Below, one piece after another: positions 3,820 through 49,293 of a stretch of 53,728 bases of DNA. How positions within the stretch are numbered: position 1 is the first letter of the stretch; every line of letters starts with the position of its first letter. Origin of the DNA: Catajapyx aquilonaris (lineage: Eukaryota). The stretch lies in assembly GCA_000934665.2 (NCBI GenBank), contig KZ538687.1, positions 1 to 53,728 on the forward strand, in the 5' to 3' direction. Position numbers and translations under genes: made by a program. Below the pieces are notes generated by a model that was not told the DNA's origin, made no database searches, and saw only the letters and a program-made list of their open reading frames with translations.

Positions 3820-4504
3820 ATCTCTTCTCTAAAGGCTGGGGATTGGGGAGACAATTTTTTTTTCAAGATAAAAGGTGAAAGGTGACATGTTGTGAGAGTG
3901 TCACATGTGGACAGGTGTCCAAGGGGGTGCTGTAGTGTCACCTGTTCTATATCCTGTGTGGACAACCCTTCCACGCTGCTTCTAGGTCCGGACGATGCGG
4001 GGAAGATGGCCAAAGAGAAGAAGAGGACAGAGGAAAACTATCGCTTTTTGTCCGCAAATCGAACTCATCTCTTGCAGACAGAGATTGTCTACAAAAATCG
4101 TCTTCCTCTATGGACAATCCGGACGCCATCTTTGATATTACGACTGCACTTATATAGCTATAACATTAATATTTTTTACTTGCTTGTTGGTGCCACCTAC
4201 ACGCATAATTAACACATATTGAGCTGTATTGTTAAAATTATATTAATTAAATACGCCACAACTTGGCAACATTGTCTTCCCCACACTTGAACGTAGTACG
4301 AATAGTCCACTACCAGTTGGCGCTCTATGCAAACTACTGTCGCGCTCCCAGGCGAAAAGTAGTACTACATGAACGTTGGTGATGAGGTCAACGCGGTTAG
4401 AGACAGAGTCACACATAGCCTATTATACATTTCAACACTATAACCATGAGCAGGTCAATCTTTATTTATTAGTTTTCCATCAAAAAATAATAATCTATCT
4501 GACT

Positions 4505-4800
4505 CTTCCGTCCGTCTGTCTGTGGACATGTATCAGGGCCTAAACCGCAAGAGATAGCGACAAACGGGTTTCGGATTCGGGTTCAACATGCTGATGACCC
4601 CCCCAAATATGGTTTCATGCTGGACATCCGGATGTGGATAGTACTGGACATCTGATCTGGATTTCTTATTTTATTTCCTGCATGATATGTGGATGTCTGT
4701 GGGATATATCTACGGAAGCCCCGAAGATATCCACAGGACGATTATCCAGGAATCCACGCTTGGATCTCTCATGGACGTCTCTGGGATATTGTATATCGAT
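4505..4800. repeat. Interspersed repeat remnant: (GTCY)n tract followed by ggatatcc/ggacatcc short-motif repeats
   Basis: ccgtccgtctgtctgt at 4508 (DINE-1/HINE-like microsatellite), then repeated tggacatc/ggatat/atcc motifs 4620-4790. Confidence 0.4.
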
Positions 4801-4953
4801 ACAATGTAAAGTTATAGCATACATTACTTGGCGGGAAATGAGACAGACTCAACGTTCTATGTCGTTGTGAGAGAAAAGTCTACTCGAATCACGCCAATCT
4901 TGTTTATTTGTCTTTTGATTTGTATTGTTTCCTCTCCCTCCTGGGAAGGAGAG

Positions 4954-5144
4954 GTGGGTCGGCCCATGGCGGTACTGCAATGCCGGGGCCAACCCGTGGC
5001 GGGGGAGGAGCAAGCCCCTATGCACCCCGCCCCTTCGCAAAAATCAGATTAATATACTGACCCTCATTAGAGGGACTATCAGATATTAAGCTGATAAGAA
5101 CAGATACTACACTTTGATCGGAGCCATTAAGCCCGAGAAGCGAT
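4954..5144 (-). ncRNA. U2: U2 spliceosomal snRNA (variant stem I)
   Basis: Minus strand reads ATCGCTTCTCGG..GATCAAAGTGTAGTATCTGTTCTTATCAGCTTAATATCTGATAG. Branch-point recognition GTAGTA, stem IIb CCCTC-TAAT-GAGGG, Sm site ATTTTTG, stem III GGGGCTTGCTCC and stem IV loop ATTGCAGT are all present; ~191 nt. Confidence 0.97.
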
Positions 5145-5439
5145 AGCAATAGCGGTGGACGAAGGGCCACTAGCCAGCCGCCCAATCCCTACTGGGGACA
5201 CGCAATGGTTGGTCTGACAGCAGATTACGATTGGTACGAGGCAGGCTGTGGTATGTAGTCGGTTCAAACGACGGAACAGATCGTACTGGATCTGTTGTGC
5301 ATGCCTTGTTTCGTGCTGGTCCGATATTTATACTTCAAATTAATTATGATAAGTCGAATTAGTGTCTGGGACCGCAGCGCCATCTGTCCACGGACGATAA
5401 AGATGGACTCGTAGCTGAGTGCATTGACGCCTGATATTG

Positions 5440-5500
5440 AGGCCGCCATATTGGAACTCCTGCATCACGTGACACTAAATACTGGCCTCTGATTGGCTGA
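5440..5500 (+). promoter_or_regulatory. Probable COX16 promoter motifs (YY1/Pho-like, E-box, CCAAT)
   Basis: gccgccatatt at 5442, tcacgtga at 5465 and gattggctga at 5491, 80-140 bp upstream of the ATG. Confidence 0.45.
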
Positions 5501-5580
5501 TCGGGGACTACGAGCTCAAAGATGGCCGGGTGAGCAGTGCTGCCAACAGTACGAGTCACAGGGGACCACCACGACGGGTG

Positions 5581-6030
5581 ATGTGGGATGGTCTGGTGTC
5601 GCTGTACCGTCGCAAGTCGGTCAGGTACGGCGTGCCCTTCGTCCTCTTCGTGGTCGGGGCCTCGTTCGGACTGAAGGAGTTCTCCCAGCTCAGGTTGTTG
5701 GCAACATAAGCCATGCGGTGTACTGGACATACTAATTGCGACAATTGGGCGCAGGTACAAGTACAGGAGAGTGCAGTCCGTGACGCCAGAGGATGCCGCC
5801 AAGTACGGGGTCCGGATGAAGCAGAAGGGGGAGGTCACGCTGGAGTCGGAGTACCACAAGGTCCAGAAGGTACACGGCAGGGTTCGTACTCATTGCGTAG
5901 TGCGATTAACACAATGTTGCAGATGGACATAGACACCTGGGAGAACAAGAGGGGCCCGCGTCCCTGGGAGCCGGACAGCGAGGCCATGCAGCAGCTGAGG
6001 GAGCGTGCGGCCATGAGGAGGGGTCGGTGA
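5581..6030 (+). CDS. COX16: Cytochrome c oxidase assembly protein COX16; 3 exons, 111 aa
   Basis: Exons 5581-5693, 5755-5869, 5923-6030: [67 protein letters not shown]. Contains the diagnostic YGVPF..G.FGL.EF.Q.RY and W.[9 protein letters not shown] motifs. Confidence 0.95.
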
Positions 6031-6466
6031 GGAGTGGCCAGGCGCCCTACGTGGCGTCCAGCGTAGGGGAGCTGGCCTGCGTACGGGGGCTGGACAGGTG
6101 GGGGAACAGGAACGTGCGGGTGGCTGGCCGCCTCAGGAAGGTGGCATCCGACTGGTGGCTGGAGGCCCTGGCCGAGGAGGACGGGAGGGCAATGGTCAAG
6201 GTCCTCTTCGACCTCATGGACGCACTGCCCGCGGAGCAGACCAGGCCGGTGCAGGTCTTCGGGGAGCTGCGGATGGACAGGCAGGAGCTGCTTCTGTACG
6301 CCAAGGTGCGTACCATGCACTTGTACCGTACCCTACTGTAACAACACGCTTTCAGATCGTACGTCCCGCTGACGACTTGGACCTGGCCCTGTACAACCTA
6401 GCCATCGACCTGCAGAAGGATTACGTACCGCCCTTCATCGCAACCGACTGTAATATGTTAGACTGA
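6027..6466 (+). CDS. TEN1: Small OB-fold protein, most like CST-complex subunit TEN1; start codon unresolved
   Basis: Exons 6027-6305 and 6356-6466 (50-nt GT-AG intron). NVRVAGRL..VKVLFDLM..VQVFGEL..LLYAKIVR..DLDLALYNLAIDLQKDY fits the TEN1 pattern better than its paralogue RPA3. No in-frame ATG before the middle of the domain. Confidence 0.72.
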
Positions 6467-6539
6467 ATAATAAGTTCACATTGTTGCGTTGCTGCGACTT
6501 CTCCTTTTTCTTCATGAACAGTACAATCGTTTCCAACTC

Positions 6540-7265
6540 AACGATAGACAAATGTGCTTTAAATTAAACCAAAAGGGGCCAAAAAATATATTTTATATTA
6601 CAAACATATAGTTCATATTTACACTTTTTATTTCTTGTGCCTTCTATTATATTTACATATTTTTATTTCAATTATTCGTTTATTCATTTTCATATTAATC
6701 AAATTCGTGCAATTTATATTTTCAAAAAAAGCTGGTAAATATGAAAAGAAATAAAAACCGGTAAATTTTATCCATTTTTATTTATTTTCATATTATTTTC
6801 TATTTTATTAATTTCAATTATTATTGGTCTATTTATTGCGTTTTTAAAAATCCTCAGCCCTTCAAATATATAACAATTTAAATAAATATTGATAACAAAT
6901 TTTCTACTTGCTTTTATTTATTTCAATTATTAGGTTATCAGTTTTCATATAAATAAAGTTCATACCAAGGAAATTAATAAAGTTCATATTTTTAATTAAT
7001 AAAATTCATATTTTAATGAACAAAATACATATTTTTAATTTAAAAAAATTCATATTTTTAAATACCTAAAGATTGCTGGTAAGTATGAAAAATAAATAAA
7101 TTGATAAAAAATACCAATTTTTATTTTCATATAAACATGTTTTTTATTAATTTTAATATTTGTTTCCATTTTTATTTAATACGTCAATTATTCAGTAATT
7201 TTTTCATTTTAATATGCAATTCATTCAAAAATAAATAAATAAAAATATTTGAATTTATAAATAAT
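6540..7265. repeat. Very AT-rich tract with degenerate ~345-bp duplication
   Basis: gctggtaaatatgaaaagaaataaa (6731) recurs as gctggtaagtatgaaaataaataaa (7075); many ttcatatttt units. Confidence 0.5.
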
Positions 7266-8274
7266 GCCATGCTTAAATTTCTACTGCTTGTACAGGGTGA
7301 CGACGGGTGTTCAAATCAAAAGTCGTGGGATGTTCAAAAAACGAGTTTTATTTTCACATACCATAATTGGCTATGTAAAATACTTTTTATTTTACCCAGG
7401 AGGAAAAAAAAAACTATCCTGTATGTATGTATGTAAACCAGGGTGTGTCGAATAAACAGTGTTGTACACAGAGAGGAGGGGGAGGGGGGGAAAAAAAATT
7501 GCAATAAACTGTCTGCAGAAAATATTCCGAAGCAGTACCGAGGTACACATGATTTCAAATTGTTTGCTCGTTTAAATACTGGGCAATTATCCTACTCACT
7601 AACAATATAAATAGTTGTTTTTTTAATAGGAAATATTGGATGGCAAGGTGAGAACTTAAAAACAAGAAGAGGTAAAAATCTATACAACGAGAGACCCTTA
7701 CTTTTGAACAATTCAACTACTGTACAAGAAAATATTCAAATTGTCCCACATGCTTTAATTTTAAACAAAAATTCACTGGCCAATTTTTCAAGGGTGGTAA
7801 AAAAAAAATCGGTAGGGTTTGCCGCTGCGTTAATTAATGTTTTGCGCTAAAACATTCACACGTTATGTACACCCATTCGCTCAGCCAAGGAGAAAAAATC
7901 TTGCGTTCATATAAAAAAATAACATTCTCGCTCCCAAATTTCTTCACATGTAATTTCTTTTTTTTTCCTTTCCCTTTTTTTTTTTAAACGTGATAAAACC
8001 AATATGTACATGCTTATTTACACTTGCGAGGCAAGAAAAAACAATTATTTTAAAAACATGTACGTACGGGGTCAGGGCGGGGGAGAGAGTAATTATATAC
8101 ACACATACGCAACATTATTGCTAAAGCTTACAATATTATTATTAATTTTTTTTTTTGCATATTTTCATTTTTTTTACTATAAAAAGTTTCACTGGAAGAA
8201 GCTAAAAAACATTTTGTTTTTTTGTTTTCCTGCAATAATAATTCTCATCATAGTTCTAATAATAAGTGATGATG

Positions 8275-8275
<1 letters not shown>

Positions 8276-8322
<47 letters not shown>
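8276..8322. repeat. (AAT)n microsatellite
   Basis: Perfect aat run in the presumed long ash1 3'UTR. Confidence 0.95.
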
Positions 8323-10038
8323 GAGTATTACAATACCCATGAAATGCAAAGTTGGTTTTGGTGTGAATGTACTTTTTTTTTCTTCTTCTTTAAATAAAAA
8401 ATATATAGATTAATTATTTATATGTACATCCAAATGCAACGTTACTTTTTTGACTCGTTGCAACCATTGAAAATTTTATGATGCAACAATGATCATGATT
8501 ATTATTTTTTTTGTTTAAGTACAGACATAATTGGCGGAGACATTTTTTAAAAGTTTTTAAAATTCTTTAGGTCCACACTGGGTCTTATTTCGCGGTACGT
8601 TTTCTCTGAAAGTGTTTGCAATTGTCGCGATTAGAAAATCTAATTACTGCCAACAACCAGTCGCATCTTCATCAATAAATTTTTTTCCCCCCGATTTCAC
8701 TTGTTCGCATTATTAAAATTACTTGGTAGTCAATCAGTCGTAATAATTACTCGACGGTCCTCGGCAATTGAAAAGACTTTCAGACATAAACGTATCTTCA
8801 CAATAATTATCTTTAAAAAAACAATCGTGGCGACTAGTAGATTTAAGCTGCTTCCTAATTGCCAACAATGGTGCTATTTGTACTTTGAGATAATTGCTGT
8901 CGTCATTAGGCATGGGACGCTGTTGATTACGTTTAAAAAAAAAACTGGCCATTTTTAAAAAATGAAATGCGTTTGCTCCTGCCCTATACATTTGGCCTTC
9001 ATTTTTTTAGTCACAAAAATAATGACCGTTCATTCGTCAAGTATTTTTTTAAAAAAAAGCTTTTCAGATGGCAGATGCCGTTGCCTTCTCTCGTCAAAAC
9101 CTGTTCGCAACACTTTAAAACAAAAAGCAGTTATTTATCAATATGAATCAAGAGTTTGATATTAATGCAATATTTGTTAAAAAAATTGGCACAACGGCCC
9201 TGTCATCTGAAAGCAGGGAGTCGATGAGATTCTTTTCGCCAAAACCCACACACAATATTATTATTTCCCCCAGAACTTCAAACAAGTGCCTCGGTATGAG
9301 ATACGTGCGTTGATGCAAAGCTACCGAAAAATCACTCTCCCTTCAACATATTAAAAAAAAGTGCAAGCATTTGGCAAAAAAAAACTAGTAATACAAAAAA
9401 ATGCTGTGATGTCATTTTGCAATCCACCTCAAAATACTGATAAAAAGAGATTCGTTAAAAAAAACGAATATTTTCATTTATGACACAAATCAGTCTAAAA
9501 AATTTATCAACTTTGGCCCACATACGATGCGCCTTTAAAGAAATGCTTCAAAGTATCACACCTCAATGCTTCGGTAACGAGTATTGAGCAATTAGGATTT
9601 GGCAAATCACTGGGCTTTGTTACAAGCTGGAGGAAGTAATAAAATTAACTCGCTCCGTACTTCGCAAAAAAAAAAAAAACAATTGCATTAATCGCAAAGG
9701 CGCATAGGAATAATATTGCTGTCTTTTCGGGAGCTTTCCTGGCACTACGAACAATAGCAAAACAGCAGCACAGGCTTCATGGCAGACACGCTCTTAAGAA
9801 AAAAAAAACAAATTACGGAGAGTGATAGTGCAGGTGCTGGCATCGTAACAAACCCTGAGTCTCTTGAAAGCAAAAAAATCAGACGTAACATACGACGTGC
9901 CGAATTTCAAAAAAAATAATTATGATTGAACTTTTCGTCCCAGTCCTCATGTCCTCTGATTCTTCAAGGAAGCGCGGATCCGCTCCTTGAATGCTTCTCT
10001 CCGTCTCTCTCAACGCCCTGTTTTCAGATGAGCCATTC

Positions 10039-13000
10039 TCAGGGATTCAGTATAGTGGTCTTCTTTCTCTGCCGCTTCCCGGTGTCCAGAAGGTACGACA
10101 GGTCGATGGGCTGCTTGGAAGGAAGGGCCGAGAGAAGGCGAAGCAGGATGCGGTTCAGCCTCTCGCGTTGTCTCAAACCCTGCAAAAATATAATTATGAA
10201 GCAATGCGGATAATTATACGAGCAGATGTGACGTACCTTCGGCTGAACTTCCTTGGTCACCTCTTTCGCCACCTCCTTTGCGACTTCCTTCACTTCCTTA
10301 ACCTCCCGCCTCTCCCGCCGCCTCCCAGTCTTAGATGCGTCTGACTTGCTGGATGCAGAGTCGTCGTCTCCGCCCTTCTTCCTGCCCACCCCGACGCTGA
10401 CAACGTGCGGGGCGTACGTCCTCTGCGGCCTGATCCTCTCGTCGAATCGCTCGAAAGCAAATGCCTTCGTGCACACCGGGTACTGCGACTTGGAGGCCTT
10501 GGAGAACAGGCGTGCAGATCGATCCACCCTGTACTCGCAAATGTACACATGCTCCTCCTGGGAACCGACGGGCCTTCCTTTGCAGTAAGTGTTGAGATCC
10601 AGTACCCAGCACCGACCCATTATGAGTTCGACGGGCACTATTTCGTAGAGCGGGACCCGCATGACCTCGTTGTTGAAGAACTTTCGGGTCGGCTCATGGT
10701 AGGTCTCGTGCGGGCGGAGGTAGTGGTGCCCGAAGGCAAAGCGGTCGCCCCTGCGAGAAAGCAACATTAGCAACTGCAATTCGGCAATGCACACAGACTA
10801 CGGACTCACTTCTCATCGATCCATAGCCTCTCGACCCTGAAGATGTCGCATTCGTCTGGCTTGAACTCCCTGACAGTGAGGTAGGACAGCTTCGCAGGAG
10901 GCGACGCATCTTTGTACTTCTCATGCAAGGGCGCAGAGTCCCTAAGAACGTACACGGTGTCGCTGACCCTCAGCTGAAGGGCCTCCCCTCGCATCAGCGT
11001 GACGTAGTGAGTGAGGCCGGCCGTCCCGTACGACGGCTGCGGCTCCATTATGATCTCGCTCTCAACCGGACGCGGCTGGCACCGCTCGCACATGTAGTGC
11101 TCCACGGAGGAGCCGTCAGTCTTCACGCAGTCGCAGTGCTGCCAAACCAGACACCGCTCGCACTGGATCATCAGGCCCTCATCCCGCGGAAGGCCACAAA
11201 TGCACCGTATCACATCCTCCTCCTCATCTGTAACACAAGTCGTTAGAAATCTGGCGCTGGTGCAACCGGCCCTGATTTACTAACCATCTTCAGGTCCTGG
11301 CACGAAGCTGCTTGGGAAGCTGTCCCCGAGGATTTCCTTGAGAACTCCCAGGACGTCCATCTTGGCACGGTTGTACACCTTCCTGAGCCTGGCCGCAACT
11401 GTCCCGATGTCCGAGGTCCGTCCGAAGAATCGGATGGCGTTGGTGAACAGGCGGACGAAGTCGTTTTCGTACGCTTCGACAGACCGGTAGGCGCCAGTCA
11501 CAATGTTGCGCTCGATTGTGCCCAGGTCGATCGGGTCGTGGATTTTGGTGTAGTAACCCGGATGCTTGCGGCGGGATGGGAGGGTCGCAAGTGGAAGACC
11601 CAGAGGCTGGCCGTCATCATCTGCGAATGTAAAACATGGTTTTTGAAGCATAAGCGACTCCATAAATCCAACCCACTCACCTTTAGTGGACGCAACGGCA
11701 GTGTAGATGTCCTTGAAAGCCTGAGCCAGCCTCGCGACCTTGGTGACCTCCGGGTCATCCTCCGCCCTGGCCAGCCTCCTGGTCTTGACCGACCTGGGAG
11801 TGGACAGGGCGTTCAGCTGCGTTAGGAACACATCAGAGGCCTTGTACGCCGAGGAGGAAGCGCAGTTGGAGGACTTCTGGTTTTGGTGGTACGGCGGGTG
11901 GTGGTGGTGGGTGGAGTTGTGCGAGTGGCCGTGGTTGTGGTGGGGCTGGCGGAGGCTTAAGTTGCCGTTGTGCTCCGAAGTGTCCCTCTGCTGGAGTCGC
12001 AGACACTCCCGCATCCTCTTCACCTGAAGGGAATGATCACGGGTTAGCAAAGCCAAATCTTAAGAAGAGTCACCTAAGCGATCAATGGCGGACTCACCTT
12101 TTCGAGGTTCCGAAGCAGGAAGCAGTGATGCGACTGGGCGAAGCATCTCTGCTGGTGGGACATGGGCCTCACCGACTGCCTCTGCAACTGATTAGCACCA
12201 GAGCCGCAGCCTCCCGCGCCGCTCCCGTGGTTCCCCCCGCTTCCCATTCCGCCAAATCCGCTTCCTCCTCCTCCCTGGTCCGCCCTCTCCTTATTCCTCA
12301 CTTTGACCGGGTCCTTCCTGGGCCGACCCACCTTGTTCTTCTCGCTCGTTCGCTCCTTCTCGTCCTTGTTCACAACCGTACCGTTCAACCGCTGGCTCTT
12401 CCCGCCGATCACGCCACGGCATTTGGCACTCCCGCACTTGCAGGGCTGTCCCTCCGCCGGGTTGAACAGTGAGAAGTTGTAGTCGTAGGCCAGCTCCTCG
12501 AACGGATTGATGTCTCTGAGGGCGAACAGCGCCATCCGAAAGAGCCCATTGCAGCTCCACTTCTGCATCTCGCAGTTGGGTTCGCATGAGTGGTTAACAA
12601 ACCGACCGTCCCCGCCCATCCGATGCCCGTCGATGACCAGCCCGCCATCCAGATTCAGGCAGTAGTGGTGCGTGTCCGAGGTGTACCTGGTGGCCATCCT
12701 CTGCTTGAACTCCTTCTCCGACACCACCTCTCCGACGTACTCCAGTATGAACGAGCTGGTACGTATGGTCTTTTTGGTCCGCACCCCCCAACCTTTGTCC
12801 TTGGTCATGAATCGCTCCAAGCCAGGCGCCCACTCGTGCCTCTGTATCCGCTGATTTGAACACAAGTCGTCGCATGGACACAGCTGCGGAGAGCACTCCG
12901 CATACACCATGCGATTGATACAGTCGTCACCACAACCTTGTTCCGATCGATCAGAAGGAATGGTGCAGTTGCAGGCCTGAGCCTCGTACGTGTAAGTGGG

Positions 13001-16000
13001 CTTCACGTCATAATACACATCTGGAAAAGCGACTTCTCATTAGAATCAACGTCACGATAACTACAACAATGTTAGGAAAACTATTTGCTTCCTCTTAATT
13101 GCCTACTACTGGGAACTAAATGAACAACTCACTGGTGCGTATCTTCTTGTAGTTCCAGGACGGCACCAGATCCCTCCCTGGAAGCTGGTTGTGCAGATGA
13201 AGCCACCAGAGGTCGAAGGGCAGCTGGAAGTCCACCCGCCTCTGCCTCAACCACTTCCCGCAGTGGTAAGGAGGGGGCAGCAGCCCATGTTCATGCTCCT
13301 GCGGGTTGTAGGCCATCCTGCTGCTGGCCGCCTTCGGGTGGGGGCCGGAGTCCGCGGATCTTCTGGAGGAGCTCCCGTTCTCCTTGTAGTAGTTGGAGAA
13401 CAGGCCCGCGGCCAGGAACTTCTTCCGCCAGCGAGGCTGCTTCCTCTTGGCCGTCCCCTTGCAGATCTCCTCGGGGGGAACGTCCAGCACAGGTACAAGT
13501 TCGCACGCCACTTCACTGGTTTTACGCATGGGGGGGGGGGAGAAAAGATTGCGGAATGTCATTCACCGCAAATAACTCGGGTGGAAAACATGACAACGCG
13601 CAACTTGGACAATAAGAGCGATCCCTACCTGTCCTCTCTCTCCTCTTCCTCCTTGGGCTTCCTGCCTCTCCGTGTCATGCATGGAACCGCCACCGGGACA
13701 GGCGCCGGAACCGGGTTAGGCGCAGGGGCCGGCAGAGGCGGAGTTGCCGCCTTGACCTCCTCCGCTTTACTCTTCCCCTTCTTCCTCGTCTTCTCCAGAA
13801 TCCTCTCGGGTTCCGCCGCCTTCTCCGGCCCACGCTTCCTCAGCTTCACAGTTTCGCTTGCGGAAGGCGGCTCGGGAGTCGGCTCGACCACCCGTTTCTT
13901 TGGGACTTTGACGCTGGTGCTGGTGCCTGCTTCGGGGCTCTTGATCTTCTTCTTCTTCTTGGTTGACGGGAAGCCCGTCCTATTGATGGCCTTCCGTCTT
14001 CTGGCCCGCTTCTTCTTGTCGCCTTCCGCTCCGCCACCGCCGCTCTTGCGATGCACCTGCATGGGAAGACACTGAAGTTAAAATAAACGCATGAATGAAA
14101 CCTTGTCCGTGATTTTCTTCCTAGACAACTCAGGTTGTAGTCGAAGTGTGCTTAACTTTCATTACGCAAGACCTGAGTGTCCGGCCACCTTAACAAACAG
14201 AACATTCCTCCAACTGCGCGACTCATAAATCTTTGACCTAGAGCAAACTGAACATGAAAAGCAGAAAAAAAATTTCACCTCCTCGGGGGTCAGCTTGGTG
14301 ACATGGACCCTGATGTCCTTAATAATTTTCCGTCTCTTCCGCCTCACCCTCTCGTCGTCCCGCCTTCCACTGGAGGAGGTGTCCTCGTCGCTGTCCACCT
14401 CGGACTTCCGTTTCGCCCTCGGGACGTACTCTTCCCTGGCCGAGCCCGACTGGCCTGGTGAAGAGGATGGAAACGACGGACCGGGAACAGTGTCGGAGGA
14501 GCTCGAGTCGGCTTCAGGTGCAAACCCCGCCCACCCTTCCTGGCATTTGCAATCCCAGTTGGCTGATGCGGAAGGAGGATTCACCAGATTGACGGCTGGG
14601 AACGTCACCACACCAAACACGTGTGTAAGGCAGTGCTGGTTGCTCACCGCTGGAAAAGAGAAGGAACACTGTTGATGCCTACTGATGTGTCTAACACTAA
14701 ATCGCACTCACCCAGCAAGGGAGCAACTCCTGAGGATCCGACAGACCTGGCCGTTCCCGACCTGCCGGTTGGCTGCTGAGTTGATAACACAGATGACTGT
14801 CCTGTACAACCTGACGACGATGCAGCCACACCACCAACGCCAGAGGTCGGTGATGTGGCCTCCATCCGGTGCCTCTTCTTCGGGGTGGTCGCAAACGCAG
14901 CACTGCCGCCTCCGACGGAGCACGCGTCCGGAAATACCACGTACCTGAAAAGCACACGTACGTTTTTGAGTCCTGTACAATGCGACAGCAATAACGAACT
15001 CAGTACCTGCTGATGCATGCTTCGATAGCTTCGTCTATTGAGTTGCGGTTCGGCTGATCTTCTCCCGACAAGCGACTTTTCACCCCAGACACGCTGACCG
15101 GATTGTTGCTGCTCTTGTTGGATGCAACTCGACTGGGGGCCGAGTTGCTGACGGACGACGATGCACCGGAACTGGCTCCAGGGGCAGAGGTGTCGGCAGC
15201 CTCAGAAGACGAAGTGGATATGTGGTGGTGGCGCTTCTTCAGAGGGAGGCGCTGCTCGTTGGCGTCTGACCTCTCCCGATTCTGTTAGTGACGAGTAATG
15301 TCAGAATATTTGCCCAATTGGTACACACTGTAATACTAGCCTTTGGTGCTTCAACCACCGCCTTCTTGGGTCTTCTCTTCCCTGCCCCCTTGTCCTTGCT
15401 CCCTTCCCCGTCCGTCCCCGAGTCTTTGTCGCTGGCCCTGCCCTTGTCGACTCCCTTCCGCTTCTTCAGGTACTTCCGTAGTCGGAAGATGGATGGACCC
15501 GTCACCTCCTCCCTCGCCCCACCTTCTGCCGCGCCGTTGGTCCCGCTCTGCAACGCACTTGGACCCCCCCTGGCTATCTGACACTGCTCCAGATGCTGCG
15601 TCACCTCCTCCACATCCGCTAAAAACACCGGGTCCACTATGTTCTTGTGCTTGCTCCGCCAGTGCTTCGGAGGCTTTTTGCGCTTGCGGCGCTGGGCTAG
15701 TTTCGCCGCAACGCCGTTCGCGGGTGGGGCTGGCATCGCAACTAGACTCGCTGGAGGTGGAGGAACAGTCGGCGGCGGTGGGGGAGGCGGAGGTGGAGGC
15801 GATTCGCTTTCCTTCTTGGCCCGTCCGGGTTTGCGCTTTTCGGGGGTACTCTTGCACTTGGCAGCACGGCCTTTGGGAGCCGGTTTTGCATCAGGTTTAC
15901 GATCGCCATTGGCATAAGCACCACTGGCATTGCTGTCGACCACATTTTTCCTGCGGGGCAATCACATTCGGGAATTGTTATACAAGCTCCACTTATTTTA

Positions 16001-35203: not shown

Positions 35204-38200
35204 ATGTCGGTGCCTTTGACACCGAGGTGTGTCAAGGTTGACAACTGGGGAATATTTTTCCTCAATCGTCTGGAGCAGTCTTTTGAGAGGGGTGACTTCT
35301 GCGATCTCACCCTTCGATTTTCGTCCCAGGCCGAATTAAAGGCAGGTCCCGTAGCACTTGAAATCAGACAGTGCGATAATATCTTCTTCTTATTACGACA
35401 GGTTCACAGTTTGGTATTGAACGCATGCACCGAGTATTTCCTGGCGCTTGAAAAGCAAGGGCTACTCAAAAATGGGTACCTGGAGCTCCCTAGTGACTTG
35501 ATGCCGGAAGTGGTCATCCCTATTATACGGTGAGTCGCAGGATGCAATTGATTATTCAGTAACGAGGTTTGCTTGTGGAAACAGCTGCTTTCAATACGTT
35601 GCGAATACGGAGAGCAAGTAAAGTGTGACATGTATGGAATTAAAACGCATTTTTTTATCGCCTTTAGGTTCATGTACACAGGAAAATTGGAACTGGTGGA
35701 GGGCATGCAGCACGAGCTGTATGTTGCTGCACAGCAGTTGCACATGTCAGTTTTGACCAAATTGCTGGATGCGCAGAGAGAGCCCATGAAGCCCCTGGGG
35801 ATGCAGAGGGCAGGGGGTATTGCGGGAGGCGGCGGACTCCATCACCAGCAGATGAAGAAGCACCCTCCAGTCACCTATTCGTTGCAGGGAAAGAAGATTA
35901 CGCCAAAATCTCCTTTGCCTCCGATGAAGAGGGAGAAAGAAGACTGGCCTGACCCACTGCCAGGGAGGAAGTAAGTTGTGAGCCTTGCTAACCTGTCTGC
36001 GGCTGGGTACTGACAGAGAAATTTCATCCGGTAGACTCCCGATATGGAAGCGTCGTCCACCCAAGTCTCCGCAGAGTACGTCAATCTTAGGCCAGCCGAC
36101 TCAGAGCGAGGCAGCCTGGGCGGAGGGGAGAAAAGAGAGCTTCCTCCGTCCTCCCCCCGAGCCGCCTCGTCCGACTCGATTCGAGTGGCCTGAGAATGAC
36201 CCAGATATGGACAACGAGGCTCCTTTTGCCACCATAACGTACGAGTCACAGCTGCTGTCTAGACCAAAGAGCCCGACCAATGTAGGAGGACCTGCGCAGC
36301 CTCATAATGCCACTGCAGTAAAAGCAGAAGTAAGTAACGGTGTAATGACTGTACCGTCATAAAACTGCATGTTTTTCATCAGGTTTTTGAAGAGCTTCGT
36401 AAGACCATGACTGTCAAACGAGGTGCTGGCGACCATCAAGCCATTGCTTCGGCAATGGCGGCAGAGCAAATGTCGCACTTGGATGCTAAGAAGCCCAAGC
36501 TGGATATTGCTGAGGTGCGCGAGTATGTGGAGGAGCAGCGGGCTAGAAGGGAGCTGATGATCGGTAGGGTGCGGAGCAGAGAAGAACTCGGCGACGGGGA
36601 GGAAGGGTTAGCGGATGCGGAGATGGAGGAGGATGGAGTGGATGACTACGATGAGGATAATGTGATTGGGGACGACGACGACGACGATGAAATGGTGGAG
36701 GGAGAGGAGGGCGTGATGGGCGGAGAGGAGGTTGCGAGTGGGGAGGAAGTAGCAACGGCTGAAGAAGTGGTAGCAAGTGGCAGTGCTGTGTTGACACCGC
36801 TGCTAGCACCACCTGTGTTGCCAACCCCGCAGAAGTCCATTCTCAGGACGCAGAAAGCGGGACCAAAGGTACGTTCGACTAGTCGAGTCCAATGTGCATT
36901 GTGAAAATTAACTCTTTCAGGGCAAGGAGGTGGAGAACGGCGGCGAAAGCAACGGCGCTCAGCCCAAGAAGGTGCGCTTCCTCCTCAAGCCGGACGAGCT
37001 GGAGGGGGCTGACCAGGGAGGAAGCCAAGAGTCTGTTCCTGCCACTCCTCCCCCTACTCGGAAGGAAGCGTCTCTGCCGAAGTTGCCCACCGCGGCATCG
37101 TCGGCTAATCAGCAGAACAACCTGACCAACCACGCTCGCATCATATCGGAAGTGCTGAGGAAATACCCGCAGCTGGTTCGCGACAATAAGAATATAAAGC
37201 TGAAGATCATGCAGAGAGGGCAGTTCGGAGGGCTTGCTCCTGACGGCGGAGGGGGTGGGGCGGAGGAAGTGTCAGAGGATGGAGGAGGAGGAGGAGGCGG
37301 AGGGACTCCAAAGGTGGTGAAATCCAGAGTGTCTTACGTCGTGCTCAAGTCCGGAGACAAGTGAGTTCATGTTCATTTCTCTTGTCGCCTTTGTCTACTG
37401 ATTGTCTTTCAGGCTTCCTGGCGGCAAGCAGTCTGTCGTCTTGCGCACGGGAAACCAGACCCTGAGCGAAATAGTCAGCACAGAGCCGGCCCCCAGTATT
37501 GCCTCAGGAGCTGAGAACACCACAGGTCCGTGGCTGTGCTACACGTGCGGTAGTGGAGCGGACGATCCACAGAACTTCGAGACGTACTACCTGTATCGCA
37601 AGCACTTGCAGGAGGTACACAGAGAGAAGATCGACAGCCGGATCTGCGAGCACTGCGGGCACCGTGCGAGCAAGCGAAATCTTCTTCTCTACCACTTGTA
37701 CACCAAGCACAATGTGCAACCGCCGAGGAACTGCCAGTTCCCCAAGTGCGACCAGTGCGGATACATCGCTCTTTCCGAGTCCCTACTAATCAAGCATCGG
37801 AACAGCCATTCCCATGCCAGGGACTTTGTTTGTAAGGTGAGTGACTGCGCACAGTCAATCAGTGCTGTCTTACATTATGATATTAATTCGTCAGGAGTGC
37901 GATGCGAGCTTCAAGAGCAACGGTGCCCTTCAGGGACACATCCAGGCCAACCTGCATGGGAACCACACGTCTCGGAAAACGTACGAATGCAACCTCTGCG
38001 ATTCAACGTTTGCGCGGAACATCAACCTCAAAGCCCATCTGCGATCGGTCCACAAGAGAGCCAAGGGCGTGGAAGAGGCGGGAGGAGTAGTGGCGCCGAC
38101 TCCGCTGGGAGCAGGCAGAGGAACGCCAAGACGGAGAGGTGGCGGAAGAGGGGCTAGATCCACTCCGATACACAGGAGAGGAAAGATGAAGGCGGAACTT

Positions 38201-40604
38201 GTGGAAGAGGAGAGCGAAGAGGACGAGGACGACGAAGATCCGCTTGTCGATCCGCCTCACCTGGACCAGGTCTGTGATCACACGACATGTGAAGCAGGGT
38301 TTGTCGATAACTTCTGTTGCTTCGTTAAGGTGAGCCAGGCAGCTGACCATTCCCAGGTGGTAGCCCAGCATCACGCCCAGCATGCCCATCCCCCTCCGCA
38401 CCTGGACCCGTCCTCCGAGGCGGAGGCCCTTTCCAACGTGGCTAGTGGAATTGCAGCTTCTTTGGGGCTGGTGGAGGAACATTTGGTGGCGACGACTGCT
38501 GTTTCTGGTGGAGTCGGACAGGAGGTGATCGTCAGCTATCACCCAGCTACGTTAGTCACGGACGGAAACCAGCAGTACATCATACCGGAGGTGGACGCAC
38601 CTGATGAACAGGTGAGTGGTCGGAATCTGGATCTAGCAGATGCGTATGACGTACCGCTTATTTCTCCCCAACAAGGTGACGGTGACATACGCTGGCCCGT
38701 TGTCCGACCTGGAGCACTATGCTGCGGCAGTAGCCACTACCTCAACTTCCATCTCGGTGTGCGACCCTGATGCGATTGTGAGCATGTCTGGGCACCACCA
38801 CATGTCGTTGGGAAGTTCCACGGTGCAGGTCCACGAAATGCCGTTGCCGACGTCTCACCACCAGGAGGTACATCATGAGGAGATACATCATCATCAGGAC
38901 AGGGTGTCGGTGGACCAACAGAGTGGACCGAAGGTTGTGGTTGAGGAATGCCCGGTGCTTCCGGACGAGGGGATGACGGTGGAAGGGAAGCACCAGGTTG
39001 TGGTGGTTCGTCACGGAGAGGATCTCATGAGACTTCAGGGGGTGAAGATCGTGGTGCAGGAAGTGCCGCAGGAGGTGGTGCAGCGGCAAGTGGAACAAGA
39101 GGCCATGTACGAAGGGCAAAGGGCAGCGTTACTCCATGGGCATGTTCCGCAGGAGATGGCGGAACATTCGACCGGGGACATCATGTTGGATCAACCCGGA
39201 GACGCTGTCCTACAAGAGCACCCTGACGATGCAATGCTGCAGGAACAGCAACCGAGGAAGGTGGAAATTACCATCATAGAACATCCATCGGAAGGTATTG
39301 CAGAAGAAGTGTATGGGCACGCCTCCATTGAAGAGCACTCGCAAGACGAGAAGCCTGGCGACGTGAGCCTGTCAGAAGAGCAGCCTACAGAGCACGTGTT
39401 AGAAGAGGAGCCGGATGAGATGGCCACCATGGAGCAACCAGACAGGCTTGAAGAATCTGCCGAGACCCTTCTGGCCGAACAAGTTGAGGATTCCGAACTG
39501 GCCGAACAGGTCGAGGATTCTGAACTTGCAGAGCCTGCGGATGTTGAGCTGGCCGAGCCTGCGGATGTTGAGCTGGCCGAGCCTGCAGAAAGGACCATTA
39601 TGGAAGAGCAAGACGAAGCTAACATTTACAAGGCGGAAGAGGAAGCAGCCATTTTGCAAGAGCAGCCCGAGGAGCCGCCAGAGTTGGAAGAGGCGTCACT
39701 TTCGGAGGAACCTCCTCCAGCGGTGGGCTTACCGGAGGAACCAGAAGACTCCGCATCACTCCCAACTTTGGAGGAAGAACCTGGCGACTCCTCCGCAGCA
39801 CTCCCGCCTTTGGAGGAAGAACCTGAAGACTCCTCCGCAGCTCTCCCGCCTTTGGAGGAAGAACCTGACGACTCCTCCGCAGCTCTCCCGCCTTTGGAGG
39901 AAGAACCTGACGACTCCTCCGCAGCACTCCCGTCTTTGGAGGAAGAACCTGACGACTCCTCCGCAGCTCTCCCGCCTTTGGAGGAAGAACCTGACGACTC
40001 CTCCGCAGCACTCCCGTCTTTGGAGGAAGAACCTGAAGATGCAGCATCCCCAGAACAGCCTGAGCCTGCTTCAGAAGACCAACCTGCATTGGAAGAAAGA
40101 CTGCTAGACGAAATGCCGGTACTGGAAGAGGAGTCTCCACCCAAGGAAGACCAACCGGTGGAGGAGGCGCCGTTTCTGGAAGAAGCAGAAGAAGAAGAAG
40201 CAACGTATGCAAAGGAACCTGCGATAGCCGAGCCCACAGATTCGGCAGAGGAGGCTCCGGAAAAACCAGCGGCCGGACATTTAAGTGTGACGCCTGATGA
40301 ATCGGCGAGAGAGTCGCCTGCGGAGATGGACGTGGCGGTGGCACAGGACGAGCCAACGCCTCCTCAACTTGCAACCGCAATCTTGGAGGTGTCGGAGCAG
40401 GCACCGTCCATGCCAGTGCTGGAGCGCATGGAGGAGGAAATCGGAGCGGAGGGTCAGAGGTCGGAGGAGGCGATGGAGGTCGCGGACAACTCCAACTCTG
40501 CGATGGATGAAGGAACCGAGGACGTGGCTGCCGAAGCGATGGAGATGGGGGAAGCGCCGGACGTGTACATGGACGATGCGGTAATGGGACCAGACAAGCC
40601 ATAG
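35204..40604 (+). CDS. Cp190: Centrosome-associated/insulator zinc-finger protein CP190 (BTB, C2H2 fingers, E-rich tail); ~11 exons
   Basis: CP190-type BTB start VKVDNWGIFFL..CDLTLRF..LKVH.LVL.ACTEYF..VVIPIIRFMYTG.L, then LPGRKLPIWKR, five C2H2 fingers and a long acidic tail. Exons 35204-35341, 35402-35529, 35668-35970, 36035-36329, 36383-36868, 36921-37360, 37413-37836, 37895-38269, 38330-38611, 38676-40604. Confidence 0.88.
39765..40040 (+). repeat. Coding 42-bp minisatellite (LEEEPDDSSAALPP)n in Cp190
   Basis: Six to seven near-identical copies of ttggaggaagaacctgacgactcctccgcagc.ctcccg.ct. Confidence 0.95.
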
Positions 40605-47163: not shown

Positions 47164-49293
47164 TTAATCAGCATGATCCCACTCGATTGGGCAGAATCCC
47201 GGCCCATTCGGAGGCTGCACTGGATGTCCCCGGGCGACCATGCGGCATCGGTGCTCCTCCAGTCGCTTCTCCGCATCGTCCATGTCCGTCGTATCCTTGC
47301 TGGACCACAGACGTTCAGCCACCGAACTAGCTCGGGGCCAGAGTCTCGGAGTCAAGTTCGAGGCGTCTACGAACTCGCCCCACATGCAAGCCTCTCCGCC
47401 TAGAACCAACCGGTTCTGCGACTCAGTCCCGTTGAAATCATGCGGGTCGCACTGGTAGAACGCATGCCAATCGGCGCCGTACGAGAAGTCACTGAGGTAC
47501 CAGCAAGCGGACAGGATCGTCTGGTAACCCATGCCCGTCACCTGCAAATTTTCCGTTAGTAACGTCGGACTGTCAGCCTCGGAATAAATCGAACCTTGTC
47601 CAGCTCCTCTTTGTATCCGTCCTTCCAGACCTCGACTATCGTCTTGTTGTTGACCGTCACATTGTTGTCCACTACTTCCTGCCACACGATGTAGCTGCTG
47701 CCCTGTTCGTCCATAATGTCCACTAATCGCTGGACGTAGTACTGCTCCAGAAGCGAGTAGTCGCCGGTTATGTTACGCTTCTCCATGAAGTTGGTCACTT
47801 GCGGATTGCTTTCCCTGCGGACACAACATTTACGTACAAATGATGCAACAAAAGGACAGTCGACTGAACAATAGCGAACCTTACCAGCACGAAAAGGACA
47901 CCTCGTCTCCTCCGAGATGTATGTACTTGTCTTCAAACAAGTCCCGTGCGTCATGGAAAAACGCTTTCAGGAAATTGAAGTTATCCTCGTTCGTCGGATC
48001 GATCGGTCCGTAAGTTCCGTCCGGCTTCTTCTTCGTGTAACATGGGGTCAGAAGTCCAGGTTGTCCAGGGCCCCAAGACTGCGTGTGACCTGGAGTGTCG
48101 AACTCTGCGATGACTCGTATTCCACGAGCCCTCGCGTAGTTTATAACTTTGGAGATGTTCTCATGGTTGTAGACGTGTGTCACTGGATTGTATGCGCCTT
48201 TTTCACTGGAACGTGAATCGTACATTACAAGTCAGAATCTGTTCATCGGAGAATTGTACTGTACCTTAGTTCGGGAAATGCGCTGCTTTGGTACGGAAAA
48301 GATTGGTCGTCCACCAAATGCCAGTGGAACACGTTAAACTTGTTCATGGCCATCAGATCAAGCGTCTCCAGAATTTTCTTTGTCGGGAGAAAATGTCGGG
48401 CCGTGTCCAACATCACTCCGCGGAACGAAAAACGAGGAAAGTCTTCCACTAGTGTGCTCGGTATTTTCAGCTGGAATAAAAGTCTCATGATTACTCAGCG
48501 ATGTGTCTCGAATAAATGCGCTCGATTTGACGACCGAAGTCATCGCCGAGGCTGAACAATCGATTGTCGCCTCAAACAATATTGCGTTACTCAGCCTCGG
48601 CGAAGATTTCGCTCGTCAAGACGCATTGTTGGCGGACATGTTTACGCATCGATAGTAAATAAAAGCTTACCCCGACGTCATCCGAAGCAGGATACATCAG
48701 CTGCACTATGGTTTCCAATCCTCGCATTATTCCCCACACGGTCTCCGATGTTAAAATCCCGGCTTTCGGCGTATCCGGATTGTTAATCTTGATCTCGTCT
48801 GCGAAAATGCGTACATTAGTGACTGCTTATTAACGAACTAGATGAGCACGCACAGTGTTCGTCCATGTGAGCTGACGGCCACGATTCGCATGGCTGCATC
48901 AGATAAACCTGGATTACGTCCAGATAGCCTTTGAAGTTACGATCCTTCTTCCATGGCTTGTACGCCTTGGGCGTGTCCGCATTTTTGGTCCAAACGTACG
49001 AGCTGATGAGGTCCGTGTAACGTGCGATTGCGCCTCGAAGAAGCGCACAGTCCTTTCCTGTCACCTGCAATGGAGCGGTTAACTAGGCGGAAACCACGTT
49101 ACATGCGACATACCTTGAACTGAAATGCGGATGGCCGGACGATCATGTACCCTTTGTAGTCAACCCGCACTTGCGGCTTGGGCCACGGCTGCCCCTGGGT
49201 GGCCACCACTCTTGGCCCAGGGTTACGTATCTCGTCATTTGTGTAGTAACCAGTTGCCACGCCCAGGCAAAGCAGCACGACGAGGAGCTTCAT
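47164..49293 (-). CDS. Beta-hexosaminidase (GH20), copy B; 7 exons
   Basis: Same exon layout; signal peptide [43 protein letters not shown]. Confidence 0.95.

Follow-up and report, generated by a model that had tools for sequence, protein, structure and literature searches.

Komonyi et al. are said to have described, in 2009, a bicistronic Drosophila locus, CG31241, which encodes the telomere-capping protein Moi together with Tgs1. Each ORF of CG31241 has its own AUG, and to our knowledge no overlap of a stop with a start codon is known at that locus. Among viruses, the TURBS systems (calicivirus VP2; influenza B M1/BM2, at UAAUG) have a downstream ORF whose start codon is overlapped by the stop codon of the long ORF before it, and replacement of the restart AUG by a non-AUG codon still gives quite efficient reinitiation, according to part of the text of PMC3035654. 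ORF1 and ORF2 of the SART1 non-LTR retrotransposon are coupled at UAAUG in a manner that needs downstream structure, and reinitiation after a long ORF is given as very rare except in viruses and retrotransposons (both from an excerpt of PMC5972666). In yeast and in human, STN1, the partner of TEN1 in CST, is held in check by short upstream ORFs that terminate across its main start codon; these ORFs, of 6-19 codons, are non-functional, the protein is kept low, and STN1 has an AUG of its own, as set out in the relevant section of PMC6089452.

The locus analysed here lies on the + strand of a 53,728-nt stretch of the Catajapyx aquilonaris genome (contig KZ538687.1; the window). As in CG31241, a telomere-protection protein, in this case a TEN1 orthologue, and an unrelated housekeeping function, in this case COX16, appear together in one bicistronic gene; the proteins of the two loci differ. 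COX16 starts at ATG 5581-5583 and runs through three exons and 111 codons to TGA 6028-6030. When the exons were scanned separately against Pfam COX16 (PF14138; profile cut-off 27 bits), exon 1 (5581..5693, ending inside codon 38) scored 29.8 bits over profile positions 1-24, exon 2 (5755..5869) 14.9 bits over 31-62, and exon 3 (5923..6030) 19.9 bits over 64-79 of 79. All three exons thus match the family colinearly across the profile, and the gene is a full-length member. Intron 1 (5694..5754, 61 nt) and intron 2 (5870..5922, 53 nt) are both GT..AG introns that are skipped by joints of a transcript contig.

A second ORF follows in the -1 frame relative to COX16 and opens at the GTG of a GTGA (6027..6030), in which the proposed Ten1 start, GTG 6027-6029, overlaps the COX16 stop, TGA 6028-6030. 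The first-pass annotation of this DNA had placed the COX16 TGA inside a GTGA whose GTG opens a TEN1-like ORF, and its coordinates hold. The Ten1 frame comprises 6027-6305 and 6356-6466, or 129 codons counting from the GTG. Ten1-like exon 1 (6027..6305) has 93 codons from the GTG and covers an N-terminal helix and OB strands 1-5, while exon 2 (6356..6466) has 36 codons followed by TGA 6464-6466 and covers the end of strand 5 and a C-terminal helix. The intron that separates them (6306..6355, 50 nt, GT..AG) is as clean as had been annotated, and is removed in the transcript contig.

When Ten1 exon 1 was used as query, a word-index search of proteins gave no match, unlike an exhaustive HMMER search of 1.84 billion protein representatives, which returned nine relatives at E-values of 1.9e-6 to 6.4e-4. 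Pfam Ten1_2 (PF15490) was matched by 8 of the 10 aligned members, the window exon included (E <= 0.1; best 4e-14), and none of these members matched a Pfam RPA3 family at E <= 0.1, so that the comparison of Ten1 with RPA3 profiles suggested in the first-pass annotation came out on the side of Ten1. Scanned singly against Ten1_2, the two window exons gave 14.8 bits (profile 22-82) and 13.5 bits (91-114), which are colinear matches that each fall below the 27-bit cut-off. With a profile built from the nine relatives alone, the spliced Ten1 frame scored 98.7 bits (hmm 12-136 of 138), having scored 74.0 bits before the 50-nt intron was spliced out. The leave-one-out score of the window protein was 101.2 bits, with a family range of 97.3-153.3, and the invariant residues of the family are all kept. 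A PDB sequence-profile search gave archaeal RPA14 as its sole match (E 0.15), and the ESM Atlas yielded just prokaryotic OB-fold clusters of a generic kind, the highest score being 0.91. Two metagenome loci (L001 and L002) were considered as TEN1 relatives and rejected, being bacterial genes with one chance 8-residue word in common. On the evidence of these sequence comparisons, we take the second ORF to be a genuine and conserved member of the Ten1 family, Ten1 rather than RPA3. A COX16-like N-terminus was found in none of the nine relatives, and the COX16-TEN1 arrangement is therefore not known as a conserved one.

Structure prediction was consistent with this assignment. An AlphaFold model of window exon 1 (pLDDT 87.2) has five strands and gave its best TM-scores, 0.69, to 6w6w_D and 4joi_C, which were taken as human TEN1 chains from their length (117-121 residues) and entry titles; this bears out the earlier description of the OB fold as intact. 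The model of an orthologue (pLDDT 90.2) has a C-terminal helix (94-110), and its top PDB match was 8d0b_C, from a human CST entry (E 2e-6, TM 0.71), while its comparison with S. pombe Ten1 (3k0x) gave an E-value of 7.5e-5. Archaeal RPA14 scored almost as well as solved TEN1 in the structure comparison, and the sequence identity of the window and orthologue proteins to solved TEN1 chains is just 16-21%. TEN1 of human and of fission yeast, the small subunit of CST, likewise has a single small OB fold and a C-terminal helix, and the product of the second ORF is predicted to fold into one OB barrel of five strands followed by a C-terminal helix, nearest to solved TEN1. TEN1 is apparently functional in this animal, with putative STN1 binding and a putative role in CST.

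Both ORFs are carried by a single spliced transcript contig of 883 nt (5559..6605, +), which aligns to the window in the blocks 5559-5690, 5752-5867, 5921-6303 and 6354-6605 with 0 mismatches and 0 gaps. It has exactly three joints, at which all three GT..AG introns are removed, and because of these intron-less joints the run from which it comes (X5) was read as RNA. Run X5 represents a different sample and study from the DNA runs X2 and X4. The contig supports the presence of COX16 and TEN1 on one spliced two-gene mRNA, and the shared unit claimed in the first-pass annotation is thereby recovered from an independent sample; this is evidence at contig level, at which rare isoforms are dropped and a contig with two ORFs does not equal proof of a single molecule. 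When the junction was checked for a spliced leader, the contig had no break there and there was no X5 loose end among those listed. The + strand holds no AATAAA or ATTAAA over 4246-6563 and hence none between the two ORFs, as had been stated for the intervening poly(A) signal. The first canonical signal after either ORF is an ATTAAA at 6563..6568, and the transcript contig ends 37 nt later. Any COX16 mRNA polyadenylated by way of a canonical signal therefore has to include the whole Ten1 ORF.

In the profile alignment, homology to the family starts about 3 codons downstream of the GTG and none is found upstream of 6036, in agreement with the claim that the TEN1 N-terminus falls at the COX16 stop. 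The Met of the short orthologues stands 2-9 residues before the conserved motif, and the window GTG stands 6 residues before it; GTG 6027 and AGG 6030 are the only in-frame near-cognates between the COX16 stop and this motif. After splicing, the Ten1 frame of the mRNA stays open from the first base of the contig (5559) through 6466 and has no ATG before that at 6192..6194. This ATG is codon 56 and marks the start of OB strand 3, mid-domain as had been noted, and its position at strand 3 all but rules it out as the Ten1 start. Taken by themselves, the 54 codons that precede it match relative P0004 with 44% identity (E 8e-11), and they hold the invariant P7, W25, N27 and G34 as well as the N-terminal helix and strands 1-2. 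Going by conservation, the Ten1 start has to be placed no further downstream than about 6045. Four of the nine relatives have N-terminal extensions of 60-100 residues, which indicates that additional N-terminal sequence is tolerated. Given a TEN1 that has no ATG and begins at the COX16 stop, its translation would have to be unusual.

Among the four alternatives put forward in the first-pass annotation, stop/restart at the GUG best fits this anatomy. We infer, tentatively and as a possibility somewhat short of an even chance, both the start and the mechanism: translation of TEN1 by termination-coupled reinitiation at GUG 6027. COX16 and the TEN1 orthologue would be expressed from one spliced, polyadenylated two-gene mRNA, and ribosomes terminating at the GUGA would restart on the overlapping near-cognate GUG. 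The restarting ribosomes would come off either the 111-codon COX16 ORF or a 5-codon mini-ORF, which is opened by the last COX16-frame ATG (6013..6030) and ends at the same TGA. The output of TEN1 would be small and tied to the translation of COX16. Reinitiation after a long ORF for a cellular protein is described, in the portion of PMC5972666 concerned with it, as very rare and as normally needing special tethering signals, and this rarity weighs against a restart at the GUG. The context of GUG 6027 is poor, with T at -3 and A at +4; this context and the lack of significant structure in the flanking RNA count against reinitiation.

In comparison with TURBS, the overlap of stop and restart codon is present, in the form of the GTGA. 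Motif 1 of TURBS has a UGGGA core with complementarity to helix 26 of 18S rRNA, and UGGGA pentamers as candidates for this motif lie upstream of the restart codon, with a putative function: a TGGGA at 5938..5942, 89 nt before the GTG, which is a lead only, and another at 5965..5969, 62 nt before it. Both are forced by Trp-Glu codons of the COX16 protein, those of the second belonging to the conserved COX16 C-terminal motif, and the mRNA contains 3 copies of UGGGA, where its composition would lead one to expect 1.41. As regards motif 2 and structure, the UGGGA at 5965 lies in the loop of a local hairpin (5950-5988, -18.3 kcal/mol, z -1.10) that is not significant, being equalled by 31 of 200 shuffles. 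The RNA folds of 5990-6110 (z -0.17) and 5930-6035 (z +0.92) were likewise no better than shuffles. Stable structure is scarce also in real TURBS elements, as part of PMC3035654 has it. The TURBS systems are viral, whereas COX16-TEN1 is a cellular nuclear mRNA whose natural restart codon is GUG, and unlike TURBS it has UGGGA copies dictated by Trp-Glu and no significant structure of the motif-2 type. We regard as unlikely, though of interest, the fuller reading in which ribosomes pass from full-length COX16 to the GUG restart in an animal and UGGGA could act as the 18S-tethering motif; COX16, whose conserved Trp-Glu codons inevitably supply the pentamers 60-90 nt ahead of its stop, would then be pre-adapted as an upstream cistron.

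The likeness to SART1 lies in translational coupling at an overlapping stop and start on a eukaryotic RNA; in contrast, SART1 is a mobile element, restarts at an AUG and needs a downstream structure, and no such structure was detected for COX16-TEN1. With STN1 the locus has in common a CST subunit whose start is overlapped by an upstream stop, and the mini-ORF of 5 codons that begins at ATG 6013 likewise terminates at the shared UGA. Here, however, the upstream ORF is the functional COX16 gene and it is TEN1 that has no AUG.

An explanation of lower probability, and unlikely in our judgement, is a minor separate TEN1 mRNA, in which an ATG-bearing 5' exon is joined to an acceptor in COX16 exon 3 or which starts inside COX16. 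The CAG acceptors ending at 5978 and 6041, singled out in the first-pass annotation as being in the TEN1 frame for the exon-2 donor, are indeed so by frame arithmetic, the donor being of phase 0; in addition, relatives tolerate N-terminal extensions, and rare isoforms are lost from contigs. However, the sole transcript contig runs unbranched from 5559 to 6605 with three joints and uses neither acceptor, both of which are without a pyrimidine tract, and use of the COX16 exon-2 donor would join a COX16 membrane segment to TEN1. As for transcription from inside COX16, the Ten1 frame has no ATG before 6192, so that the GUG would again be needed.

It is rather more unlikely that TEN1 is no longer translated, or has only just ceased to be, its ATG gone and its intact ORF riding in the 3' UTR of COX16. 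Such a state would suit the lack of an AUG, the poor GUG context and an arrangement seen in 0 of 9 relatives, but leaves an intact 129-codon ORF with a 50-nt intron spliced in frame, the retention of every invariant residue and a leave-one-out score within the family range. The GC3 of the Ten1 ORF (0.85) is like that of COX16 (0.89), and GTG 6027 is the same in two samples, both of which again speak for a gene in use.

Initiation near the cap at a non-AUG codon (GUG 5583, or ACG 5571 or 5574) would give TEN1 an extension of about 150 residues and make COX16 dual-coding. GUG 5583 overlaps the COX16 AUG and is flanked by G at both -3 and +4, there is no stop in the Ten1 frame from 5559 onward to the Ten1 ORF, and long extensions are tolerated in relatives. 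The stop-free -1 frame across COX16, to which the first-pass annotation had pointed, is real; it does not go beyond chance for the gene's own codons, however, since, when its synonymous codons were permuted 5000 times, 20.7% of the permutations were equally stop-free, compared with only 0.6% when codons were drawn from the pool of the window's long ORFs (GC3 0.66). It was accordingly rejected as evidence of dual coding, not being significant against COX16's own codon usage. The extension would be rich in Gly, Ala and Arg, as expected off-frame in GC-rich codons, and shows no homology to the family profile upstream of 6036, and we consider a cap-near start very unlikely.

Highly improbable, too, is a truncated product of 74 residues made from AUG 6192 by reinitiating or leaky ribosomes. 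Although no in-frame AUG precedes this one and its context is good (G at both -3 and +4), the product would be without the N-terminal helix, OB strands 1-2 and the most conserved motif of the family, and conservation of the 54 upstream codons would be left unexplained.

A programmed -1 frameshift near the end of COX16, yielding a COX16-TEN1 fusion protein, would be in keeping with a Ten1 frame that is -1 and open and with the G-run, CGG and UGA just before the stop. No canonical slippery heptamer occurs in COX16, the sole formal X XXY YYZ being GGGCCCG at 5952. In functional frameshift heptamers YYY should be AAA or UUU, and GGGCCCG is of the non-functional type. Downstream structure is not significant (z -0.17), so that neither the heptamer nor the stable structure of programmed -1 frameshifting is found, and in the fusion TEN1 would be anchored to a membrane protein of the mitochondrion. 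In its favour is a paper that places potential -1 frameshift signals in about 10% of eukaryotic mRNAs and explores a link to yeast telomere-end maintenance (abstract of PMC3908577). Frameshifting, the second alternative of the first-pass annotation, is nevertheless extremely unlikely at this junction.

An error of assembly or sequencing, whether a missing G at 6020-6023 or a true ATG in place of the GTG, is scarcely credible: homopolymer runs are error-prone and a fifth G would bring ATG 6013 into frame, but the G4 run (GGGG, 6020..6023) is identical in two samples, and the DNA contigs of X2 and X4 agree here at contig level without substitution or indel, as does the spliced contig of X5, which represents a different sample and study. 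Leaky scanning from the cap, also raised earlier, is unlikely, since a ribosome would first have to pass seven AUGs in other frames (5581, 5588, 5793, 5816, 5923, 5986 and 6013), all ahead of the Ten1 region. Stop-codon readthrough was rejected since the COX16 frame meets another stop 12 codons on.

A conserved TEN1 that has no AUG and starts on the stop codon of a working gene offers a natural test case for coupled non-AUG initiation. The locus suggests that dosage logic of the STN1 type may have been extended here, the part of the upstream ORF being played by an entire gene. Were the restart at the GUG to be true, TEN1 output would be tied to how strongly a mitochondrial assembly factor is expressed, and the mRNA would be a natural animal example, neither viral nor transposon-derived, of a restart that makes an essential telomere and replication factor. 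A literature search found no prior report of the COX16-TEN1 arrangement and no paper combining COX16 with the term dicistronic; COX16 and TEN1 co-occurred only in an unrelated paper on a yeast-strain genome. Elsewhere, the window encodes a GH20 hexosaminidase, a heme oxygenase, a U2 snRNA and an AWS-SET/bromodomain/BAH gene, which we take to be of the ASH1 type from its domain architecture.

Two genes lie within 4800-7200, as read from the sequence with translation by coordinates: COX16 and, in its -1 frame, a second ORF, both on the + strand. COX16 (111 codons) runs from an ATG at 5581 through exons 5581-5693, 5755-5869 and 5923-6030 to a TGA at 6028-6030, and all three exons matched Pfam COX16 colinearly (29.8, 14.9 and 19.9 bits). 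The second ORF (129 codons) extends from GTG 6027-6029 to 6305 and, beyond a 50-nt GT..AG intron, to a TGA at 6464-6466; the GTGA at the junction contains both the candidate start and the COX16 stop. The first-pass annotation had described this overlap, the frame, the ORF ends and the intron, and each of these elements was confirmed, as was its report of no poly(A) signal between the ORFs, no AATAAA or ATTAAA being found on the + strand between 4246 and 6563. After splicing, the second frame stays open back to the very start of the transcript contig; its earliest ATG, at 6192 as annotated, is preceded by seven ATGs in other frames. While the -1 frame is indeed stop-free through COX16, this was not significant when the COX16 GC3 of 0.89 was taken into account: it was equalled in 20.7% of 5000 permutations of COX16's own codons, against only 0.6% with codons from the window's long-ORF pool (GC3 0.66). 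At 5581-5585 the COX16 ATG overlaps a GTG (5583) in the second frame, with G at -3 and +4, and ACG codons at 5571 and 5574 share that frame.

Five sequencing runs contain the stretch, four of them DNA from what is likely the source sample; the fifth, X5, is from a different sample and study and contains about half of the sampled words. When contigs of X1, X2, X4 and X5 were compared with the window, a single 883-nt X5 contig spanned 5559-6605 with no differing letters and no gaps other than precisely the three predicted GT..AG introns, including the one annotated as clean in the second ORF. Since the DNA contigs X2 and X4 retain the introns, we infer that X5 is RNA. Its contig crosses the junction without a branch and ends 37 nt past an ATTAAA at 6563-6568. 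Contiguity over two genes is no proof of a single molecule, and rare variants are lost from contigs, which leaves room for a minor isoform supplying its own start; against this, X5 is unbranched through the junction.

Scanned singly, the exons of the second ORF gave weak colinear matches to Pfam Ten1_2 (14.8 and 13.5 bits, cut-off 27), and a word-index protein search gave no match. Nine proteins (E 1.9e-6 to 6.4e-4, 35-43% identity) were recovered when 1.84 billion representatives were searched exhaustively with HMMER. Ten1_2 was matched by eight of the ten aligned members (best E 4e-14) and RPA3 families were absent from their Pfam matches at E <= 0.1, a result in favour of Ten1 in the profile comparison proposed earlier. 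A profile built from the nine relatives only scored 98.7 bits on the spliced frame versus 74.0 on unspliced exon 1, and the leave-one-out score of the window protein was 101.2 bits (family range 97.3-153.3). AlphaFold models of window exon 1 (pLDDT 87.2) and of the orthologue P0008 (90.2) are predicted five-strand OB barrels, in keeping with the intact fold claimed previously; a C-terminal helix is present in the full-length orthologue. With the orthologue model, Foldseek returned chain C of a human entry for the telomere complex CST as best match (E 2e-6, TM 0.71), closely followed by S. pombe Ten1 and archaeal RPA14. The window exon model had no match at E 0.001 or better, and its top TM-scores (0.69) were to human TEN1 chains, taken to be such from chain length and entry titles. 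A sequence-profile search of the PDB had archaeal RPA14 (E 0.15) as its sole match. Judged by sequence and modelled fold, the second ORF is a TEN1 orthologue without sign of decay, which argues against a silent or only recently disabled ORF. A metagenome scan with the window Ten1 gave only bacterial chance matches (L001 730-960, L002 2096-2221), which have an 8-residue word in common with it and are not relatives.

The family profile alignment starts at the fourth codon past the GTG. The Met of short orthologues lies 2-9 residues ahead of the conserved N-terminal motif, and the window GTG lies six ahead; between the COX16 stop and this motif, GTG 6027 and AGG 6030 are the sole near-cognate codons in frame. 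Non-AUG initiation further upstream, at GUG 5583, would make COX16 dual-coding; however, the open -1 frame is not significant and the family profile found no homology upstream in that frame. A truncated product begun at AUG 6192 is also improbable. That ATG is codon 56, located at strand 3, and the 54 codons ahead of it are by themselves 44% identical to the orthologue P0004 (E 8e-11), include the residues P7, W25, N27 and G34, invariant in the family alignment, and are predicted to encode the N-terminal helix and strands 1-2; on the model, the shorter product could not form the barrel.

A COX16-TEN1 fusion through -1 frameshifting, also proposed earlier, lacks canonical signals, the sole heptamer being GGGCCCG at 5952, and RNA structure was not significant (z -0.17). 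Sequencing or assembly error, in the form of a G missing from 6020-6023, was rejected at contig level because X2, X4 and X5 all carry the G4 run and the GTG unchanged. Stop-codon readthrough was discarded, the COX16 frame closing 12 codons on, and leaky scanning, part of another earlier alternative, is implausible because of the seven preceding AUGs. With leaky scanning, readthrough and canonical frameshift signals discounted, the reading left is that ribosomes terminating on the overlapping UGA would initiate at the GUG. We advance this start tentatively, as a real possibility that falls short of probable, because reinitiation past long cellular ORFs is very rare according to a passage of the review PMC5972666. 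The first interpretation is partly supported: the TEN1 identity, the absent ATG and, as one transcript contig, the shared unit held up, while the missing G was rejected at contig level and leaky scanning and -1 frameshifting are improbable.

Eukaryotic two-gene mRNAs and stop/start coupling are of kinds already known. In the calicivirus and influenza B termination-reinitiation elements (TURBS), a passage of PMC3035654 describes quite efficient reinitiation after an AUG is changed to a non-AUG codon, and a motif 1 whose core, UGGGA, is complementary to helix 26 of 18S. The window has UGGGA at 5938 and 5965, the latter within a hairpin loop; because Trp-Glu codons dictate both and folds around them were no better than shuffles, the pentamers and hairpin are leads, not evidence. 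In yeast and human, short ORFs with a stop overlapping the main start throttle STN1, which is TEN1's partner (from part of PMC6089452), and Drosophila CG31241 is a bicistronic telomere-capping gene (as cited in a portion of PMC8596017). In the literature searched, COX16 and TEN1 occurred together in one unrelated paper only, and COX16 nowhere with dicistronic. The oddity here is an apparently functional TEN1 without an AUG, beginning on the COX16 stop codon.

A ~110-nt element (5418-5528) immediately before the COX16 transcript start is multi-copy in the genome: contig depth is 100-600 versus about 25-30 on either side, and there are loose ends and several variant copies. The element, which includes CACGTG as well as an inverted CCAAT box (ATTGG), may represent a promoter module present in repeated copies or a piece of a mobile element. 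A full-length U2 spliceosomal snRNA gene (4949-5144, - strand; Rfam RF00004, 142.9 bits over model positions 1-192 of 192) lies some 440 nt ahead of COX16 in the opposite orientation. Also on the - strand are an exon of heme oxygenase (1899-2585, 51.5 bits), an exon of a glycosyl hydrolase family 20 hexosaminidase (47164-47772, 53.1 bits) and exons of a histone methyltransferase with AWS, SET, bromodomain and BAH domains (10039-13036), which we take from this architecture to be ASH1-type; the GC-rich minus-strand ORFs that extend it to about 18100 may belong to the same gene. ORFs upstream of 38637-40604 resemble C2H2 zinc fingers by eye, although 37402-38154 matched no Pfam family, and 38637-40604 itself (+ strand) is a 655-codon open frame for a highly acidic protein with tandem ~15-residue repeats rich in Glu, Pro, Ser, Ala and Leu. 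From 6600 to 9000 runs a very AT-rich spacer (29-30% GC versus 54-60% in genes) with degenerate repeats at 6972-7070 (period 21-23 nt) and several direct repeats of 57-60 nt.
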